A stretch of 27,512 nucleotides of DNA from a virus, in the UHGV virus genome UHGV-0040380; one strand, 5' to 3'. The notes beneath the pieces were generated by a model. That model was not told where the DNA came from. It did not search any database and saw nothing but the letters and a program-made list of their open reading frames with translations. Below, piece after piece: positions 2,084 through 27,370 of this stretch. Position 1 is the first letter of the stretch; each line of letters begins with the position of its first letter. The translations under genes were made by a program, and so were the position numbers.

Positions 2084-4486
2084 TCACGCCCATGTCGCAT
2101 CTATGTAGAACGTTGGAGATGTAGTGGTGGACCCTTCAATCGATATTTGTCCTGTTGAAGCATTAATGGTGGCCATTGCCATGCCAAATGAAACGCCATC
2201 ATCAGTGAACGGTACAGGGACATTTTTGGTTACTTTTGGTCTGCACCACCTCGGAAGCGTTAGAACAGTATTGCCATTCGCAAATGAAGTGGCTGCCAGT
2301 TTAATATTAATTGAATTGGCAGTTAAACTTGACGGTGCCTGTACTGTTACGTTTGTTCCAGCCCACCATTGAACAGCTGCTCTTGGCGTGTAATCAACAC
2401 GCGACCACCAGTCGATAATGGCAGAGCAGATAATTTCCGCATACAGACGATACCCTAACTGGCTTTGGTGAATGTCATCACGCAGAAGTGGGTCGTATTG
2501 CGTGTTGAAATACTCTGGATATGGGGCCGGGAGCTGGTGAGTTGTTGTTACACAAATGACGTTATTGCCATATTTCATCATCTGGCGTTTACCAGCCTCG
2601 CGTAACTCCGCAACACCATCGTAATTTGCTGATGGCTGACCAGCCCCTCCAATAAATGACTGGCTATACCACATCCACGGCTCAACCCAAACAGGTACAC
2701 GCCCGAGACTGTTGCAATATAAGACAAACTCATCTATCAGTGCCGCCATATAATCGCCGTTTTGGTTTCCCTGCCCTTCGTTAGTTCCGGCAACCATAAT
2801 AACGATGTAAGCATCACCCGGCCCCTGAGCCTTCAGGAGATCTAACTGTTGCCTCATTGTCTGTCCGGCAACCGCCTTGTTTACAATGCTATATGAACGG
2901 TGTCCGTTCGCTCCATCCATTAATTGCGGAATGTACGAGCTGAACGCAGAAATGAAATCCTCAGCTGTACTATCACCGTGGATAAGGATATTAAGTGGAG
3001 GCTTACAGTGCACACCATTATCAGAGGTATAGCTAGTCACGCCAGTTACTCGTACAATCGTATTGGGAGCACTACTATTAGCTACAAATCCTACCTCGTA
3101 AACGTCACCTACCGCCGAAGTATCATATGGCAGTCTAAAGCTAACACCATTCATTGTAATTACAGCCCAGTTCTTTGACTGTAATGCCACCCCAATAGTA
3201 GCCTTACCGGGAGCGTAGGACAGCAACCCTCCAGGAAGTGAGAATGGAGAACCGTTTACTACCGCGCCTCCAATTGCTTTCTGCCGTACATCCCATTGTG
3301 GAGCACCAGGAGCGCCGTAGAACATCACCCATCCACCTGAGCACCGTAACACAATACCCACTTCATTAAGAGTATTAGACTCAGCACGAATATGTCCTGA
3401 CACATGCTCACCTACTGCAATGGGTACGAACAATCCACGGGTAACAGAATCGGGTAGAGCAAATAGGGCTGCCGTTTCGGAGCTAGCGAATAATGGACCC
3501 TGAGGCGTAAATGAATCCCCGTCCACTGCATAGACAACACAATCAGACCATTCCACTCGCTTCATGCGAATAGGGTTTCGGTTGAGGATGGCCTGCTTAG
3601 CCAGATAATCCACTTCTCCACCGGTTGTTGTGAAATTAAGATGGGAAAACTCAAAAGTGCATTCACCTTCAAACTTCAGCGACTTATAAAGCGAGTAAAG
3701 ATCGCTGTCGAATTTAAGAATGACGTTTTTATCAACGATTACACGGGAGTTTTGCAGATTTCCTGCCTGTGAGGCCGTTCCTGGTATTGTATAAGTTTTC
3801 TTTGTTGCAGAGTGGCAAGGGAAATAAACATAGCCATAGAGATTTACACTCTCCACCCATGCTGCAACAACGTTTGATTGATTGTAAGATGGCATAACGG
3901 TGATTGGTATCGGCTCAAATTTATCCACACCACCGATCTTTTTCCATCCGTCAGGCTGAGCAAGAAGAATCAGCACTTCACTGGCAGAAGCACTCGGAGG
4001 GAGAATGGCTATAGGCTGCCCACTGTCATCCCAGCCAAAAATCATATTCCGGCGACTTGATACCTTTGGCACCAGGTTTACACTGTTTTCAGGAACCCTA
4101 AGCGTATTTCTCTGAAGAGCACCGATGTTGAACATCGCATGCTGAATAAGCATGGTCAGGTAGTCGAATGCATCCTCATGGACCTCTGCAAAAAATTTCC
4201 CCTGATTTCTTAAATCAGTTTCCTGCACTGCTGGAAGGTTACGAGTGATTGATATTGTAATGCCTGGCAAAACAGGAGATGACGTAATAACGCTTCCACC
4301 GGAAGATAAGCCAGCACCTGTAACCATGTAATCTGTCCCCAGGCTCATTGGAGAAACAAGACCGTCAGCGGTTATTGTGCTTACATCAAGATCTGTGTCT
4401 TTAAAAATTCTGAAAGTATATGGGAATGATGTCGTGACTCCATTCCCGAGATACTCATTGTGGCTGATTTCGGTTGAGACTGTCAT
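2084..4486 (-). CDS. Tail fibre/tailspike: T7 gp17-like N-terminal adaptor domain, central receptor-binding region, C-terminal SGNH/GDSL hydrolase (esterase) domain
   Basis: 800 aa. The N-terminal ~110 aa follow the T7 tail-fibre attachment pattern (YLGNG..FPYTF...DY...I.I.R......DL, recalled from memory). Residues ~497-690 carry SGNH blocks: HGDST (Ser codon at 2969-2971), VAGTNEG, DDIHQS. GGAGA 6 nt upstream of the ATG at 4486. Confidence 0.8.
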   Translation of the reverse strand: MTVSTEISHNEYLGNGVTTSFPYTFRIFKDTDLDVSTITADGLVSPMSLGTDYMVTGAGLSSGGSVITSSPVLPGITISITRNLPAVQETDLRNQGKFFAEVHEDAFDYLTMLIQHAMFNIGALQRNTLRVPENSVNLVPKVSSRRNMIFGWDDSGQPIAILPPSASASEVLILLAQPDGWKKIGGVDKFEPIPITVMPSYNQSNVVAAWVESVNLYGYVYFPCHSATKKTYTIPGTASQAGNLQNSRVIVDKNVILKFDSDLYSLYKSLKFEGECTFEFSHLNFTTTGGEVDYLAKQAILNRNPIRMKRVEWSDCVVYAVDGDSFTPQGPLFASSETAALFALPDSVTRGLFVPIAVGEHVSGHIRAESNTLNEVGIVLRCSGGWVMFYGAPGAPQWDVRQKAIGGAVVNGSPFSLPGGLLSYAPGKATIGVALQSKNWAVITMNGVSFRLPYDTSAVGDVYEVGFVANSSAPNTIVRVTGVTSYTSDNGVHCKPPLNILIHGDSTAEDFISAFSSYIPQLMDGANGHRSYSIVNKAVAGQTMRQQLDLLKAQGPGDAYIVIMVAGTNEGQGNQNGDYMAALIDEFVLYCNSLGRVPVWVEPWMWYSQSFIGGAGQPSANYDGVAELREAGKRQMMKYGNNVICVTTTHQLPAPYPEYFNTQYDPLLRDDIHQSQLGYRLYAEIICSAIIDWWSRVDYTPRAAVQWWAGTNVTVQAPSSLTANSINIKLAATSFANGNTVLTLPRWCRPKVTKNVPVPFTDDGVSFGMAMATINASTGQISIEGSTTTSPTFYIDATWA

Positions 4487-4590
4487 GTTAATTCTCCAGA
4501 TAGTCGCAGCACCCGTTGCGCCGCATATCCGGTTATTCTATTACCCGAAAAACCACATATGGATAGACAACCCATAAATACGAACAGATA

Positions 4591-4605
4591 TTACCTTTCA
4601 GGTGA
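4591..4605. promoter_or_regulatory. Operator-like 15-bp dyad TTACCTTTCAGGTGA (copy 1 of 3)
   Basis: Inverted repeat TTACC-N5-GGTAA with one mismatch in the right arm; lies in the divergent intergenic region between the tailspike and the SOS-box gene. Related copies at 4971-4985 and 21882-21896. Confidence 0.4.
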
Positions 4606-4642
4606 TTCGCAAAACGTGCTGGATAGCAAACAAATTATTTGC

Positions 4643-4662
4643 TACTGTATAAATATACAGTT
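4643..4662. promoter_or_regulatory. LexA (SOS) box
   Basis: TACTGTATAAATATACAGTT matches the enterobacterial consensus TACTGTATATATATACAGTA (CTGT-N8-ACAG with AT-rich core) at 18 of 20 positions; sits about 20 bp upstream of the RBS of the 4682-4939 gene and overlaps candidate -35/-10 hexamers (TTGCTA / TATTGC). Confidence 0.75.
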
Positions 4663-4681
4663 ATTGCATGGAGAAGATAAG

Positions 4682-4939
4682 ATGCAGCAGTATCACTATC
4701 CACTGGAAGACGGATTTACCGAAAGGATTCACACGCCGGGAGGCGTCAGGTCACTGGTGGAGGGATCGCACTTGATGAAATTACTCCGGGATCTCGATAA
4801 GGATGGATTTAATGTCGATGGCCCACTTGCCGAACTGACTGCACTGATTAACTACGTCACCAGCTCGCAGATGTCTATGCAGGATCTGCAAACACATCTC
4901 GACTATTGTGCCGAACAATTACGAAAACAAACCAGATAA
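4682..4939 (+). CDS. SOS-regulated small protein of unknown function (85 aa); candidate LexA-controlled antirepressor or moron
   Basis: ATG at 4682 preceded by GGAGAAG; opposite in orientation to all neighbouring structural genes; LexA box immediately upstream. No motif recognised in the sequence. The longer ORF-track start at 4559 would translate through the operator and has no SD. Confidence 0.5.
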   Translation: MQQYHYPLEDGFTERIHTPGGVRSLVEGSHLMKLLRDLDKDGFNVDGPLAELTALINYVTSSQMSMQDLQTHLDYCAEQLRKQTR

Positions 4940-4942
4940 GGT

Positions 4943-4985
4943 TTGAAATTACCAAATGGAGTGCTTATATTTACCTTTGCGGTAA
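4943..4985 (+). promoter_or_regulatory. Sigma70-like promoter (TTGAAA-17-TATATT) abutting operator-like dyad TTACCTTTGCGGTAA (copy 2)
   Basis: -35 TTGAAA (4943-4948), 17-bp spacer, -10 TATATT (4966-4971); the dyad (4971-4985) starts at the last base of the -10 hexamer. Confidence 0.4.
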
Positions 4986-5126
4986 ATTTACATCGCACTC
5001 CTCTTGTGCCATAGTAATCGGGCACTGGCAAAATCCAGTGCTGGGATTGGTCTCCCGGATTACTACAGAGTTAGTGCTACACTCATTGACGCCACATTGA
5101 GGTGGCTTATAGATGGAAATTTCACA

Positions 5127-5288
5127 ATGAAAAAAGCATTTGCTGCACTGTTCGTTTTGTTGTCTCTGGTAGCTTCAACTCAGGCCTTTGCCGGTCGTTG
5201 TCAGCACGACAGCGACACTGCTGCTGACGGCTCCCGCTGCGGTGGGCGTTCTGCGGATTCCCGCCCTGGCGGCGGTGGCATTCGTTAA
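5127..5288 (+). CDS. Small secreted peptide (53-aa precursor with a Sec-type signal peptide)
   Basis: MKKAFAALFVLLSLVASTQAFA has textbook n/h/c regions and an AxA cleavage site; predicted 31-aa mature peptide is G/R/D/S-rich with two Cys. The SD is weak and it is shorter than the ORF-track cutoff, so confidence is modest. Confidence 0.4.
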   Translation: MKKAFAALFVLLSLVASTQAFAGRCQHDSDTAADGSRCGGRSADSRPGGGGIR

Positions 5289-5311: not shown

Positions 5312-5323
5312 GTGACATGTCAC
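5312..5323. repeat. 12-bp perfect palindrome GTGACATGTCAC (copy 1 of 3)
   Basis: Identical 12-mers at 5312-5323, 22855-22866 and 25120-25131; here it overlaps the TGA stop of the 5320-5616 gene and abuts the terminator hairpin. Confidence 0.6.
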
Positions 5324-19596: not shown

Positions 19597-21570
19597 TCAC
19601 TCCTGTTCACTGGCCTCTTTGGCCATCTTCAAATACTGTTCAGGGCAATGAGCCATAACGCGCTGAAACAGTTCCAGCGCCAGATTGCGTTGCCCCTCAT
19701 TAAATGCCATTGCCATAGCGTCCATCGGTGAGATAGCGGAAAACACACGGCCTTTCTCCAGCACCGACCAGACAACGCGACGCCCCTGTTCACTGCTCAT
19801 GACAAAGCGAATGTCATCAATTTCACGCTTCGCCATGTCACGTTGCTTACGGGCGTTTTCTTCTTTCAGTTGATCGTCTTCGTAATCTGTCATTGTGATT
19901 GCCCCCCCCTGACCACTAACTGCATTCGCCATAGCTGACAAAACACTCGGATCCGAAGTTTTAGCTTCGCTTAGCGTCTTGGCACCCTGTGCCGCCGCCA
20001 TCCCCATCGCCATCATTTGTTGCTGCTGTTGCTGCTGTGCCCGTTGCTGGCGAGCCTGCTCAACCTGTTCCTGCGGAACAATAACGGTTGGAGACACTCC
20101 GGACATATCAGCGAATGCATCGATCGCCTGATCAACGTTGAGTTTGTCGAGAGCTTCTGGTTTCGCTTGCGCAAGTTGACCAATGAAGTTAACCGTGGAC
20201 GCCAGACTGGACAGGCCGATAGACTTCTGCGCCTGAGCCATGACGGAAATGTATTCGACCTTCAGGGGCATGCCTTCCATCGCGTCAGGCGGTGGCGGCA
20301 GCATGTTTTTACGCACCATCATCGAGAAAGCGCGGTCAATGAGAGGATTAAGACATTCGTCGTTCAGACGCTCCAGAACCGGCCCCAACATCAGAAGTTT
20401 TTCTTCTTTCATTTCGATCACCGCTTCAACAGGCATCGAGCGGGTATTGATGTTCTGCAACATCATGAACAGATCGACAAAGTAGGCGCTGTTAATGATT
20501 TGACGAGTGTCCTGAATGTCTGCCACCAAATCTGCTGTACTGGGGTTAACCAGATAAGCAGGCCTGAAGCCATCCTGACCAGTAATCTGATCGATATACG
20601 TGATGTCGCCAGGAAGAAGGGAGGCTCGCTGATTCTTGAGGGAAGTCGGAGCAACCATCGGCGGATTGGTGGCTTTATCAATCAACTGCGACTTGCGCTT
20701 CTGGAGAAGCTGCAATGCCTTAACAGGTCCAAGAGCCAGCATACCCGGGCATGATGATCCATAAACATCTTCGCCGTTAACTTCCCAGCGCGGAGCCATA
20801 ATTGGAAACTCATCGAATCCGGACTCACGCAACAACTTGTCGTTATCGCCACCAACCTCGTAATAAACCGATTTGAATGGCTTGTTCTTGCTATCCAGCT
20901 TCGATGTATCGCGGTCAATGTTCGGGTAAACCGAGTGCATCACTTCAATCCACTTCTCGTAGGTGCCGCTTTCCCACATGCTTTTTACGTATTCGCTGAC
21001 GTTATTTAGCCCGAACTCCTGAACAAGCTGACGAACAGTCATAGAGAACTTGCGAAAACAGGTGTCCACACTGCCACGAGGTGAGTTAGCCAGGTAGTAA
21101 CTGCCTATCGGGAATGGCATTGTGCGAATAATGTCCTCGTCATCCTCCAGCACCGCCATTGCACCAGTGCTGTATGTTCCGAGGCTTCCGTATAACTGCG
21201 GCAGCGACTGATAGAGATTCGACTTATTGAACATATCGTTCATGCGGTTCTGCACCGCCTCAAGCCACAACTTAACAGGGCCATAATCCATCATTTCAGG
21301 ATCTGGCGTAGCCAGACGAAACCACGGACGCGCGGGGCTTGTGATGCCTGACATCATGCCGCTGGCGAGAGTGCGCGCCGCCATAGTCCCGGTCGAATCA
21401 ATAATGCGTGTATTCCGTCGATCGTTACGATTGACCTCAGAAGTCAGAAAGCGGGAACCACGCGGGTTGATGTAATCACTCAACTCGCGCCAGTGCGGCT
21501 CGAACGACTGACGCTCGCTTTCAAGTTGTGCGAACTGTTTGTTCAATCGCTCTTTAGTTGTTTCCGCCAT
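19597..21570 (-). CDS. Portal (head-to-tail connector) protein, T7 gp8-like, with a C-terminal extension
   Basis: 657 aa; contains a Q-rich ...QQQQQQQMMAMGMAAAQG segment resembling the T7 gp8 C-terminal region (from memory), followed by about 100 extra residues; precedes scaffold and capsid. Confidence 0.8.
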   Translation of the reverse strand: MAETTKERLNKQFAQLESERQSFEPHWRELSDYINPRGSRFLTSEVNRNDRRNTRIIDSTGTMAARTLASGMMSGITSPARPWFRLATPDPEMMDYGPVKLWLEAVQNRMNDMFNKSNLYQSLPQLYGSLGTYSTGAMAVLEDDEDIIRTMPFPIGSYYLANSPRGSVDTCFRKFSMTVRQLVQEFGLNNVSEYVKSMWESGTYEKWIEVMHSVYPNIDRDTSKLDSKNKPFKSVYYEVGGDNDKLLRESGFDEFPIMAPRWEVNGEDVYGSSCPGMLALGPVKALQLLQKRKSQLIDKATNPPMVAPTSLKNQRASLLPGDITYIDQITGQDGFRPAYLVNPSTADLVADIQDTRQIINSAYFVDLFMMLQNINTRSMPVEAVIEMKEEKLLMLGPVLERLNDECLNPLIDRAFSMMVRKNMLPPPPDAMEGMPLKVEYISVMAQAQKSIGLSSLASTVNFIGQLAQAKPEALDKLNVDQAIDAFADMSGVSPTVIVPQEQVEQARQQRAQQQQQQQMMAMGMAAAQGAKTLSEAKTSDPSVLSAMANAVSGQGGAITMTDYEDDQLKEENARKQRDMAKREIDDIRFVMSSEQGRRVVWSVLEKGRVFSAISPMDAMAMAFNEGQRNLALELFQRVMAHCPEQYLKMAKEASEQE

Positions 21571-21791: not shown

Positions 21792-21881
21792 ATCAATGAC
21801 TCCGTACGCAATTAAATTATTACCAATTTAACCACATATGATTTATTTATCGTAGACAGTTGACATTTAACGCACGAATTA

Positions 21882-21896
21882 TTACCTTTCAGGTAA
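21882..21896. promoter_or_regulatory. Operator-like 15-bp dyad TTACCTTTCAGGTAA (copy 3, perfect)
   Basis: Perfect inverted repeat TTACCT-ttc-AGGTAA; a consensus -35 hexamer TTGACA lies 16 bp upstream (21860-21865) on the plus strand, the strand that carries the tRNA. Confidence 0.4.
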
Positions 21897-22218: not shown

Positions 22219-22295
22219 GTGGCATTAGCTCAGTCGGACAGAGCAACCGCCTTCTAAGCGGTTGGTCGCAGGTTCGAATCCTGCATGCCACGCCA
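22219..22295 (+). tRNA. tRNA-Arg (anticodon UCU, reads AGA/AGG), phage-encoded
   Basis: Cloverleaf folded by hand: acceptor GTGGCAT / ATGCCAC, D-stem GCTC / GAGC, anticodon stem ACCGC / GCGGT with loop CTTCTAA, T-arm GCAGG-TTCGAAT-CCTGC, discriminator G plus encoded CCA. Resembles E. coli argU but has a different acceptor stem. Confidence 0.9.
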
Positions 22296-22381: not shown

Positions 22382-22458
22382 CAGCAGGACGCCATTGCGA
22401 TGACTTCATGCTGTAAACCCGTACAGCCACGGAAGGCATAACTCATTGCTTCCAGTTC

Positions 22459-22493: not shown

Positions 22494-22850
22494 ATGAACG
22501 ACCAGCAAATCGAAAAAGAAATCGTTGAGAAAGGCAAAACCGCTCCGCGAGTTACGCCTCAATATATCGAAAGCATCATTCTTGAAGAGCATTTCTTTAC
22601 TGCTTATGACGGCATTCGTGCTGCCAATATGGGCGTTGGCGATTCATGGACAGCGCATAAATCTACAGACCTCCTGACTTTCTGCGTACTGGTGCTGAAG
22701 AATGGCTTCACCGTCACCGGAGAAAGCGCCTGTGCAAGCCCGGAAAACTTTGATGCAGAAATTGGTCGGAAGATTGCCCGGCAGAATGCTGTAAACAAAA
22801 TCTGGATGCTCGAAGGTTACTTGCTGAAGCAGAAGCTAAGCGAGCAATAA
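22494..22850 (+). CDS. Hypothetical protein (118 aa), moron in opposite orientation to the late genes
   Basis: ATG with AAGGTGAG SD; no signal peptide or TM segment; not recognised by me; bracketed by intrinsic terminators on both sides. Confidence 0.6.
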   Translation: MNDQQIEKEIVEKGKTAPRVTPQYIESIILEEHFFTAYDGIRAANMGVGDSWTAHKSTDLLTFCVLVLKNGFTVTGESACASPENFDAEIGRKIARQNAVNKIWMLEGYLLKQKLSEQ

Positions 22851-22854
22851 CACC

Positions 22855-22866
22855 GTGACATGTCAC
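22855..22866. repeat. 12-bp perfect palindrome GTGACATGTCAC (copy 2 of 3)
   Basis: Lies 5 nt after the stop of the 22494-22850 gene and 4 nt before the terminator stem. Confidence 0.6.
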
Positions 22867-24416: not shown

Positions 24417-25009
24417 TGATTACTATCCTGACGTTCTTTGAGTCGCTTCCTGGCTGCTGCTATGCGATCAGCAATTGTCACATTCACATTAACATCCAGA
24501 CGTTCTTTGAACGCGTTGACATCAACATGCTTACCAATCAGCTCAAGGTTCTTCACCTTGTCAGGCCATTTAATTTTTTTGAGGATTGTCTCTATCGAAT
24601 CCTCGTTCATGTTCATGATGGTCGATGACAGATCAAAGCCACTAAGCGTAGTGCGCCAGATTTTCGGCCACTCGCGGATTGGCTTAAGGCTCCCATCGTC
24701 GTTGAGGATGTCGATCACGTCCATCTGGTCGATCTCCACCAGGCGCATGAGAACGTAATCAGCACTGACGCGCATTCGTTTGTTGCGCTCCTCCATCAAC
24801 TCGGCAATCCGTTTTTGAATGCGTTCATCGCGCATCATGACACTGGCTTTAACTGCCGCTGTATTTGGGGAGAATCCTGCGTTAATCGCTGCCTGAGTCT
24901 GGTTTTCAGGCGTTTTGATGTATGACTGGCAATAAGCCTCCTGCATTGCTGTGAGCGGCTTAAATTGCGTTGATTTGCGTTTATAGGTTTTAGGTTCAGC
25001 AGGCATCAT
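24413..25009 (-). CDS. terS: Terminase small subunit
   Basis: About 198 aa from the ATG at 25009 (GGTGG SD); terminase small-subunit-type N-terminal HTH region (QTQAAINAGFSPNTAAVKAS). The ORF-track TTG start at 25087 would run through a terminator hairpin and direct repeats. Confidence 0.8.
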   Translation of the reverse strand: MMPAEPKTYKRKSTQFKPLTAMQEAYCQSYIKTPENQTQAAINAGFSPNTAAVKASVMMRDERIQKRIAELMEERNKRMRVSADYVLMRLVEIDQMDVIDILNDDGSLKPIREWPKIWRTTLSGFDLSSTIMNMNEDSIETILKKIKWPDKVKNLELIGKHVDVNAFKERLDVNVNVTIADRIAAARKRLKERQDSNQ

Positions 25010-25017
25010 AACCACCG

Positions 25018-25046
25018 TGGTAATAGTTACCGTTGTGGTAATAGTA
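25018..25046. repeat. Tandem direct repeats GTGGTAATAGT x2 (7-bp spacer) in the terS leader
   Basis: Identical 11-mers at 25018-25028 and 25036-25046, between the upstream terminator and the terS RBS. Confidence 0.5.
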
Positions 25047-25051
25047 CCATG

Positions 25052-25078
25052 CAAAATAAAGCCGCCATAGTTGGCGGC
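25052..25078 (-). terminator. Rho-independent terminator upstream of terS (separates accessory genes from the packaging/late genes)
   Basis: Stem GCCGCCA / TGGCGGC (25061-25067, 25072-25078) with 4-nt loop; minus-strand T-tract TTTATTTTG follows. Confidence 0.6.
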
Positions 25079-25119
25079 AGTATTCAAAGTCCATCAAATT
25101 CATCATGCATAATCTACTC

Positions 25120-25131
25120 GTGACATGTCAC
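25120..25131. repeat. 12-bp perfect palindrome GTGACATGTCAC (copy 3 of 3)
   Basis: Overlaps the TGA stop of the 25128-25469 gene, as copy 1 does for the 5320-5616 gene. Confidence 0.6.
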
Positions 25132-26821: not shown

Positions 26822-27370
26822 TCACTCTCCTTTGATGCGAATGCCAGCGGCGCGGATTGCAGCGATGACTTCAGAAACTTTGTATGCCATTACCGTTTGG
26901 TAATCCTCGTGAAAATCTGTTCGATGAAGCATGCTGCTACGTTCCGGGAGCGATATTTCCCGTTCATCCAGTTCTGCTATGCGCTTCTCTGCGGCTTCCA
27001 GCGCTCTTCCCTGCTCGCCATTCTTCTTCTCCAGCGATTCAATTCGGTCAGCCTGCTGGTTGATATGGTTGTCCTGTGCGGACAATACTTTGTCTTTGGC
27101 TTCCCGTTCATCCAGTAGTGCCAGCACGGTAGCTGGATTGGCTGCGGCGATGAATTCAGCATTGGCCTGCTGTTCCATTTGGAAATCTTCATCGAAACCG
27201 CTTTCAGGATGCGCTCCTTCAATTCTGCAAATGGGAAGATATCCAACAACTTCACGATGAATTAGCGCATCACCAGCATCAAATATCTCCTCTCCATATT
27301 CTAGCGACCACACACCACTCGTTGCTTTCTCTGCCTTTTCACGCAGCGCCTGATAGTCAATCTTGTTCAT
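26822..27370 (-). CDS. Ead/Ea22-like prophage protein
   Basis: 182 aa; N-terminus MNKIDYQALREKAEKATSGVWSLEY resembles the conserved start of lambdoid Ea22-like proteins (from memory); coiled-coil C-terminal half. Confidence 0.45.
   Translation of the reverse strand: MNKIDYQALREKAEKATSGVWSLEYGEEIFDAGDALIHREVVGYLPICRIEGAHPESGFDEDFQMEQQANAEFIAAANPATVLALLDEREAKDKVLSAQDNHINQQADRIESLEKKNGEQGRALEAAEKRIAELDEREISLPERSSMLHRTDFHEDYQTVMAYKVSEVIAAIRAAGIRIKGE

Follow-up and report, generated by a model that had tools for sequence, protein, structure and literature searches.

The DNA analyzed here, referred to as the window, is a stretch of 27,512 nucleotides that, judged from its sequence, belongs to a phiV10/epsilon15-like (Uetakevirus) temperate podovirus prophage of Escherichia coli. 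Its late genes, which include terS, terL, the genes for the portal, the capsid, the internal virion proteins and the tailspike, and the lysis genes, are located on the minus strand and are broken up by two short plus-strand islands. The window stops before the immunity region; for this reason the regulator discussed below was sought in complete relatives. Part of the window region is matched by 559 of 5,426 complete genomes. Among them, the circular record of E. coli NADC1036 (L004, 38.7 kb) is the excised genome of the same phage type and shows 99.9% identity to the window across a 1.4-kb query around the first two dyads described below; in strain HN257 a related prophage is integrated at guaA. 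Six complete genomes were compared, i.e. L004, phiV10, SPC32H, epsilon15, Tyrion and the Klebsiella phage BUCT711, and the repressor gene rep was seen in the near-identical complete phages L004 and L009.

A sequence-only reading of the window had pointed out three copies of a 15-bp dyad with the arms TTACC and GGTAA in the non-coding DNA of the islands, and had proposed that they are operators of a dimeric phage regulator that co-controls these islands. The three dyads are present at 4591-4605, 4971-4985 and 21882-21896, and all of them are non-coding: copy 1 is placed between the start of the tailspike gene (4486, minus strand) and that of ant (4682, plus strand), copy 2 between the stop codon of ant (4939) and a 53-aa ORF starting at 5127, and copy 3 between the start of a gp3-like gene (21791, minus strand) and a tRNA-Arg gene (22219). 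The features around copies 1 and 2 are the following.

4541-4562, minus strand: conserved block with a half operator, read on the plus strand as TTACC-N5-AACC-NN-ATATG, 50 bp from copy 1
4591-4605, no strand: copy 1, TTACCTTTCAGGTGA, a highly probable operator of the repressor Rep in the divergent control region of ant and the tailspike gene; the dyad is syntenic in six of six genomes
4620-4660, plus strand: ant promoter TGGATA-17-TACTGT, conserved in five genomes
4645-4660: near-consensus LexA box CTGTATAAATATACAG, overlapping the ant promoter
4682-4939, plus strand: ant, 85 aa, by homology the antirepressor of Rep (PDB 5D50 chain E, 'Anti-repressor protein', E = 4e-47)
4943-4971, plus strand: sigma-70 promoter TTGAAA-17-TATATT, 10 of 12 consensus matches
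4971-4985, no strand: copy 2, TTACCTTTGCGGTAA, a highly probable Rep operator over the predicted start site of the promoter at 4943-4971
5009-5087, plus strand: truncated IsrK or c4-a1b1-like leader RNA, downstream of copy 2

The homology of ORF 4682-4939 identifies it as the known SOS- and LexA-controlled antirepressor Ant. LexA reportedly controls the ant promoter in SPC32H, a finding attributed to the work of Kim and Ryu in 2013. The center of copy 1 lies at about position -57 relative to the ant promoter, and this distance is fixed. No conserved core promoter overlapping copy 1 was detected in the six-genome comparison, so simple occlusion does not explain this copy. The TTGCGA hexamer that had been noticed 1 bp from copy 1, facing the tailspike gene, does exist; the minus-strand promoter to which it was assigned has no usable -10 and is not conserved, given that the hexamer reads ATGCAA in the other genomes and no -10 follows it. 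A promoter called by the prediction tool at copy 1, TAGACA-17-GATATT, was also discarded on account of its -35 element, which is not conserved.

At copy 2 the earlier description was accurate, as the promoter TTGAAA-17-TATATT that was said to abut the dyad was found at 4943-4971. Its -10 element ends on the first base of the dyad, from which it is predicted that the operator covers the transcription start. Copy 2 is syntenic in phiV10, Tyrion and BUCT711 with the -35 retained, in the form TTG[A/C/T]AA in phiV10 and Tyrion and as TTGACG, in the same register, in BUCT711. The spacer of copy 2 in phiV10 (GCAAA) is inverted relative to that of the window. In addition, it was observed that in phiV10 (L003, approximately 20485-20523) copy 2 is contained in a 37-bp near-perfect palindrome, GGAGTGCTTATATTTACC GCAAA GGTAAATATAAGCACTCC; compared with this palindrome, the right flank of copy 2 in the window (4958-5000) carries a small insertion.

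The RNA encoded downstream of copy 2 has only the first two hairpins in the window, with scores of 42.1 bits for isrK (gathering score 50) and 31.5 bits for c4-a1b1 (gathering score 46.7), and an RNA-family search gave no match to C4 RNA in this leader region. An Rfam scan of the whole window at the gathering threshold reported tRNA only, and the IsrK remnant surfaced at E-value thresholds. In phiV10 and Tyrion, full IsrK RNAs (75.9 and 79.9 bits) and C4 antisense RNAs (77.7 and 73.3 bits) are present, located at 3095-3293 in record L001 and at 21171-21369 in record L006, and they are followed by a Bro-N or anti-repressor gene. The homology between the window and phiV10 breaks at position 5065 and resumes at 5268, and in the window a 53-aa membrane-associated ORF (phrog_14503) replaces the C4 RNA and the antirepressor gene; a Bro-N/KilAC-type antirepressor gene is absent from the window as cargo of copy 2. 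As far as can be read from the DNA, the second antirepressor module of the Uetakeviruses, which resembles P1 immI and the IsrK module of Gifsy-1, is truncated or lost in the window prophage.

The second island is preceded by copy 3.

21820-21841, minus strand: the same conserved block as at 4541-4562, 62 bp from copy 3 and upstream of gp3, the portal gene and the head genes
21860-21888, plus strand: putative tRNA-Arg island promoter TTGACA-17-TACCTT, with a -10 that falls within the left arm of copy 3
21882-21896, no strand: copy 3, TTACCTTTCAGGTAA, a highly probable Rep operator overlapping the -10 of the putative tRNA-island promoter; syntenic in six of six genomes
22219-22295, plus strand: tRNA-Arg(UCU), the first product expected from the putative copy 3 promoter

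The TTGACA hexamer that had been placed 16 nt upstream of copy 3 is found at 21860-21865, and TTGAC(A/C) occurs exactly 16 nt before this dyad in the six genomes, where the -10 at copy 3 reads TACCTT or TACCCT. Phylogenetic footprinting indicates that the -35 elements are conserved at fixed distances for both copy 2 and copy 3, and these two copies overlap the core of predicted plus-strand promoters. The copy 3 promoter was not called in the consensus scan because its -10 matches the consensus at only three of six positions. The candidate called by the tool at this place, TAGACA-18-AATTAT, was rejected, given that its -35 is not conserved whereas TTGACA is. The spacing of TTGAC(A/C) puts the -10 in the left arm of the dyad, so that Rep bound to it would keep the tRNA-Arg(UCU) island from being transcribed from this promoter. 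Farther downstream, between the tRNA terminator and an ORF of the Phage_gp49_66 family (22494-22850), there is a weak LexA-like box, CTGTAAACCCGTACAG, at 22411-22426, which may be a chance match because its center is GC-rich.

Two further dyads are found in the window, both of them at terS.

25009-25023, no strand: TAACCACCGTGGTAA, a highly probable second terS Rep operator with one mismatch, 18 bp from the first one, covering the terS ribosome-binding site
25027-25041, no strand: TTACCGTTGTGGTAA, a highly probable Rep operator in the terS leader

The 18-bp spacing of this pair (25009-25041) is shared by phiV10, epsilon15 and Tyrion. The two sites extend over the leader of terS, the first late gene, and over its GGTGG ribosome-binding site, and they are located just past a rho-independent terminator. 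The homology of TerS to its epsilon15 counterpart begins at MPAEPK, with an ATG at 25006, and yields a protein of 198 aa; therefore, both terS sites are truly in the leader, as they are in epsilon15. The terS ORF as listed for the window (25004-25087, minus strand), and as given in phiV10-type records, starts 27 codons too early.

A second, distinct repeat was observed in the window. The perfect 12-bp palindrome GTGACATGTCAC occurs three times, at 5312-5323, 22855-22866 and 25120-25131, and each copy is found where a segment of transcription in the late direction finishes, beside a rho-independent terminator and often overlapping the stop codon. There are three syntenic copies in epsilon15, where they are not annotated, and in SPC32H; phiV10 has two, the expected position of the third being the end of the linear record, and L004, Tyrion and BUCT711 carry the palindrome at two of these places. 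A binding site of the gp49-like regulator and a cassette boundary are two possibilities for this element.

The abundance of the dyads in the window is well above chance, in agreement with the earlier claim. Allowing up to one mismatch, TTACCTTTNNGGTAA has four matches in the window and an average of 0.00 in 100 dinucleotide-preserving shuffles; if the spacer is left free (TTACC-N5-GGTAA) there are five matches against 0.42 expected, the added two being the sites at terS. Copies 2 and 3 fit the consensus dyad exactly, and copy 1 has one mismatch in an arm. An unbiased scan of each complete genome for all the 5-mer inverted repeats with spacers of 0-12 or 0-14 nt ranked TTACC-N5-GGTAA as the top dyad in the six complete genomes, with 8 exact copies in L004, 8 in phiV10, 10 in SPC32H, 11 in epsilon15, and 9 in both Tyrion and BUCT711. 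From base composition, 0.037 exact and 1.16 one-mismatch sites are expected per 38.7 kb, and 8 and 13 were observed. Rather than showing a similar density in coding DNA, 11 of the 13 sites of L004 fall within annotated intergenic DNA, which makes up 8.6% of the genome (binomial P = 1.3e-10), and the other two are found within the initial 25 codons of terS as annotated, in a mis-called 5' extension; once the start of terS is corrected, all 13 sites are in non-coding DNA or leaders.

From 88 sites of the six genomes the consensus a-TTACC-(A/T-rich N5)-GGTAA-t was obtained, in which the arms are invariant and the spacers free. The TTT that had been included in the spacer does not belong to the motif, conservation being confined to the arms and a single flanking base, and the putative operator is better described as a 17-bp dyad, aTTACC-N5-GGTAAt, with approximately 13 copies dispersed per genome. 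In every genome there are full operator pairs separated by 62 bp (once by 63 bp), i.e. about six helical turns; in L004 these pairs are at 28793/28855 and 31946/32008. In L004 and its relatives the replication genes are followed by an operator pair, and the sites adjacent to rep are spaced by 17/30-31 or 48 bp.

When the motif was searched in the complete relatives, it was observed that the sites cluster on both sides of rep. In every genome there are three sites toward a cro-like gene that is divergent from rep, and two or three just downstream of rep that precede the leftward early operon; in L004 these correspond to 31186, 31217 and 31234 upstream, and to 31946 and 32008 downstream. The same layout was found in six more rep loci, from Superficieibacter, Erwinia, Klebsiella, Citrobacter and Scandinavium. 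Syntenic dyads recur in the related prophages, including the equivalents of copies 1 and 3 in all six genomes. This distribution does not agree with a dedicated regulator of the accessory islands, given that with about 13 sites per genome the dyad flanks rep on both sides, in OR-like and OL-like positions, follows the replication genes and precedes terS.

The product of rep matches the crystallized repressor of SPC32H (PDB 5D50_A, 'Repressor', E = 4e-42). According to Pfam it contains helix-turn-helix families only, and the S24 peptidase domain is absent, which implies that Rep is not cleaved with the help of RecA. The Rep proteins of L004 and L009 are identical to that of phiV10, and it has been reported that overexpression of the identical repressor in phage ZX5 reduces the transcripts of endolysin and holin by over 99.9% (PMC9782041). 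The segment NLVNRW, presumed to be part of the recognition helix, is invariant across Rep proteins with overall identities of 42-78%, and this invariance fits that of the dyad arms. Distant homologues of the N-terminal domain of Rep that have a different helix showed no such dyads nearby. Covariation of operator and repressor was sought among heteroimmune relatives and none was found, all the Rep types (42-100% identity) keeping both the helix and the arms.

The same sites have been labeled before in one genome. In the RefSeq record of epsilon15 (NC_004775.2) the 17-mers appear as protein_bind features with the note 'repressor; lysogeny', which is a database prediction, at the following positions.

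12-27: before terS, equivalent of the terS site of the window
2931-2947: syntenic with copy 3
19895-19911: syntenic with copy 1
further sites: three downstream of rep and one after the replication genes

In this regard, the identity of the operator is already known, since that record annotates the syntenic sites as repressor-binding. In the phiV10-type records examined the dyads are not annotated, and a full-text literature search found no paper that defines the operator. The epsilon15 genome paper is said to be that of Kropinski and colleagues, from 2007.

Taken together, the enrichment, the clustering around rep, the synteny and the homologies of Rep and Ant make it very probable that Rep, the immunity (lysogeny) repressor of epsilon15/phiV10-type prophages, has the dyads as its operators. 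The proposal of the sequence-only reading is in consequence upheld with respect to operators of a phage-encoded DNA-binding repressor; a simple dimer is disfavored, since the Rep protein of SPC32H reportedly binds DNA in tetrameric form (PMC9638917, citing Kim and colleagues, 2016), and the tetramer is reported to be dismantled by Ant (PMC9638917, PMC9986798). In a lysogen, Rep bound to the operators, of which one set is found at every transcription unit, would keep these units silent. Rep would act as a non-cleavable helix-turn-helix repressor that, as its SPC32H homologue, could be inactivated by the small LexA-controlled Ant. At copy 2, Rep would shut off a promoter that is expected to drive, in phiV10 and Tyrion, the module formed by the IsrK/C4 RNAs and the Bro-type antirepressor, and that in the window would now drive only the truncated leader and the gene of the 53-aa membrane protein. 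At copy 3 Rep would sit over the -10 of the tRNA-Arg island promoter, and at terS, the first late gene, the pair of sites would place it over the leader with the ribosome-binding site. Copy 1 may act from its fixed position between the ant promoter and the late-strand block that carries a half operator.

Another phage regulator could be the main ligand of these sites, either the Cro-like lytic repressor (76 aa, phrog_35) or the gp49-like regulator, whose gene lies immediately ahead of terS; in this case the copies of the late region would time the lytic phase instead of contributing to lysogenic silencing. In lambdoid switches Cro and CI share operators, a precedent that favors this idea; moreover, the cro-like gene adjoins the three sites on its side of rep, and the data presented here do not separate Rep binding from Cro binding. 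Nevertheless, we consider it improbable, because the sites extend to the downstream side of rep and to all the other transcription units, as is typical of a global prophage repressor, the curators of epsilon15 assigned the sites to the repressor, and the presence of the motif is tracked by the invariant NLVNRW helix of Rep. Binding by Cro is furthermore compatible with binding by Rep, to which it would be added without replacing it. A site for a host transcription factor was rejected, as the clustering around rep points to a phage protein; to our knowledge, none of the host factors such as CRP, GntR or the ExuR-like proteins has this half-site and spacing.

It could also be argued that the dyad acts as RNA, in that the island transcripts would begin with a hairpin (stem of 5 bp, loop of 5 nt) serving, for example, as a stability or processing element, given that copies 2 and 3 are at or just past the predicted transcription starts and that the 15-17-mers fold at -3 to -5.4 kcal/mol. 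These hairpins are weak, though, and across the 88 sites the arms are invariant, without compensatory changes, while the spacers vary freely; at copy 2 only half of the dyad would be transcribed, many sites are upstream of promoters or between convergent units, and the spacer inversion of copy 2 in phiV10 is neutral for a symmetric DNA site. We regard this role as very improbable. Even more remote is the idea that the dyads are recombination junctions at the edges of swapped cassettes, devoid of a regulatory role. It would account for the borders of the plus-strand islands, each of which has a dyad on one side and GTGACATGTCAC with a terminator on the opposite side, and for the fact that the cargo of the islands varies between phages while the flanks are conserved, but it leaves unexplained the clusters at rep, the strict 62-bp and 18-bp spacings of the pairs, the invariant arms with free spacers, and the fixed register with the -35 and -10 elements. 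Operators of Rep are therefore the reading that we retain.

The conserved block of the late strand offers some insight about copies 1 and 3. On the minus strand it reads CATATGTGGTT-N5-GGTAATAGAAT, that is, a half operator (GGTAAT) fused to a -10-like hexamer, and there are exactly two such blocks per genome, one ahead of the tailspike gene and the other ahead of gp3. In phages that have an O-antigen island upstream of the lysis genes, a third relative was observed at that place. The two blocks are probably promoters without a -35 that would restart late transcription after each opposite-strand island. The distance from the block to the full dyad is strictly conserved, 50 bp on the tailspike side and 62 bp on the gp3 side. 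On the basis of these spacings, of the 62-bp full pairs and of the two DNA-binding units of the tetramer, we tentatively suggest that a Rep tetramer might bridge the full and the half site in a micro-loop of six turns, silencing both promoters of the divergent region, i.e. the island promoter and the internal promoter for late restart, although we consider this somewhat doubtful. We know of no description of an operator/half-operator loop architecture for the Uetakevirus family.

The arrangement proposed here can be compared with other immunity systems. In epsilon15 the same 17-bp dyad, ATTACC-N5-GGTAAT, is present at syntenic positions, i.e. upstream of terS, between the tRNA/gp50 island and gp3, between gp19 (ant) and the tail fiber gene, downstream of rep and after the replication genes; in contrast with the window, there is no gene past ant in island 1 and hence no equivalent of copy 2, and its Rep is only 42% identical. 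SPC32H (PDB 5D4Z and 5D50) is similar in that it has the homologous Rep, an Ant that is about 85% identical, the ant gene next to that of the tailspike, a LexA box overlapping the ant promoter, and the dyad 10 times in its genome, but it lacks a second C4/Bro-type module after ant. In lambda, CI also has sites on both sides of its gene (OR and OL) and a divergent cro-like gene, within a similar genome map; unlike CI, Rep has no S24 domain and induction would proceed through the LexA-controlled antirepressor, and the operators are found far outside the immunity region and in pairs 62 bp apart.

The C1 repressor of P1 and P7 is likewise a single primary repressor with many scattered operators, one of which controls a C4-gated antirepressor operon. 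Unlike the dyads, the P1 operators are 17-mers without symmetry; C1 and Rep are unrelated proteins, and the window lacks the C4 RNA and the antirepressor gene. In P1 immI, C1 represses c4-icd-ant and the C4 RNA constitutes a second lock (PMC8198154). The organization of phiV10 and Tyrion resembles this one, as copy 2 is followed there by IsrK and C4 RNAs that score above threshold, and by an antirepressor gene. The stoperators of gp71 in the mycobacteriophages L5 and L1 provide an example of many repressor sites beyond the immunity region, including the late or structural region. Stoperators act in an orientation-dependent manner inside transcribed regions. They are asymmetric, whereas the sites described here are symmetric and located at promoters or leaders.

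If the dyads are operators of Rep, what appeared to be a regulon of the islands becomes an ordinary part of a known lysis-lysogeny switch, and approximately 13 regulatory sites per genome could be marked by annotators in the E. coli prophages that share this region. For the tRNA-Arg island and the gene that follows ant, the prediction is expression in the lytic phase and not in the lysogen. The window phage would have kept the promoter of the lost C4/Bro secondary antirepressor module, presumably still under the control of Rep. The shared arms also predict cross-repression, for example by a phiV10-type Rep on the operators of SPC32H or epsilon15.

Two other repeats of L004 deserve mention. Near int/attP, at 38545-38559, there is a one-mismatch dyad flanked by TGACGGTA...TACCGTCA; its counterpart in epsilon15, at 26882, overlaps a feature annotated as an integrase-binding site, and the L004 dyad may not be a Rep operator. 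At 30101-30195, inside a DnaT-like replication gene, four tandem ATCCC-N6-GGGAT units placed 24 bp apart look like origin iterons.
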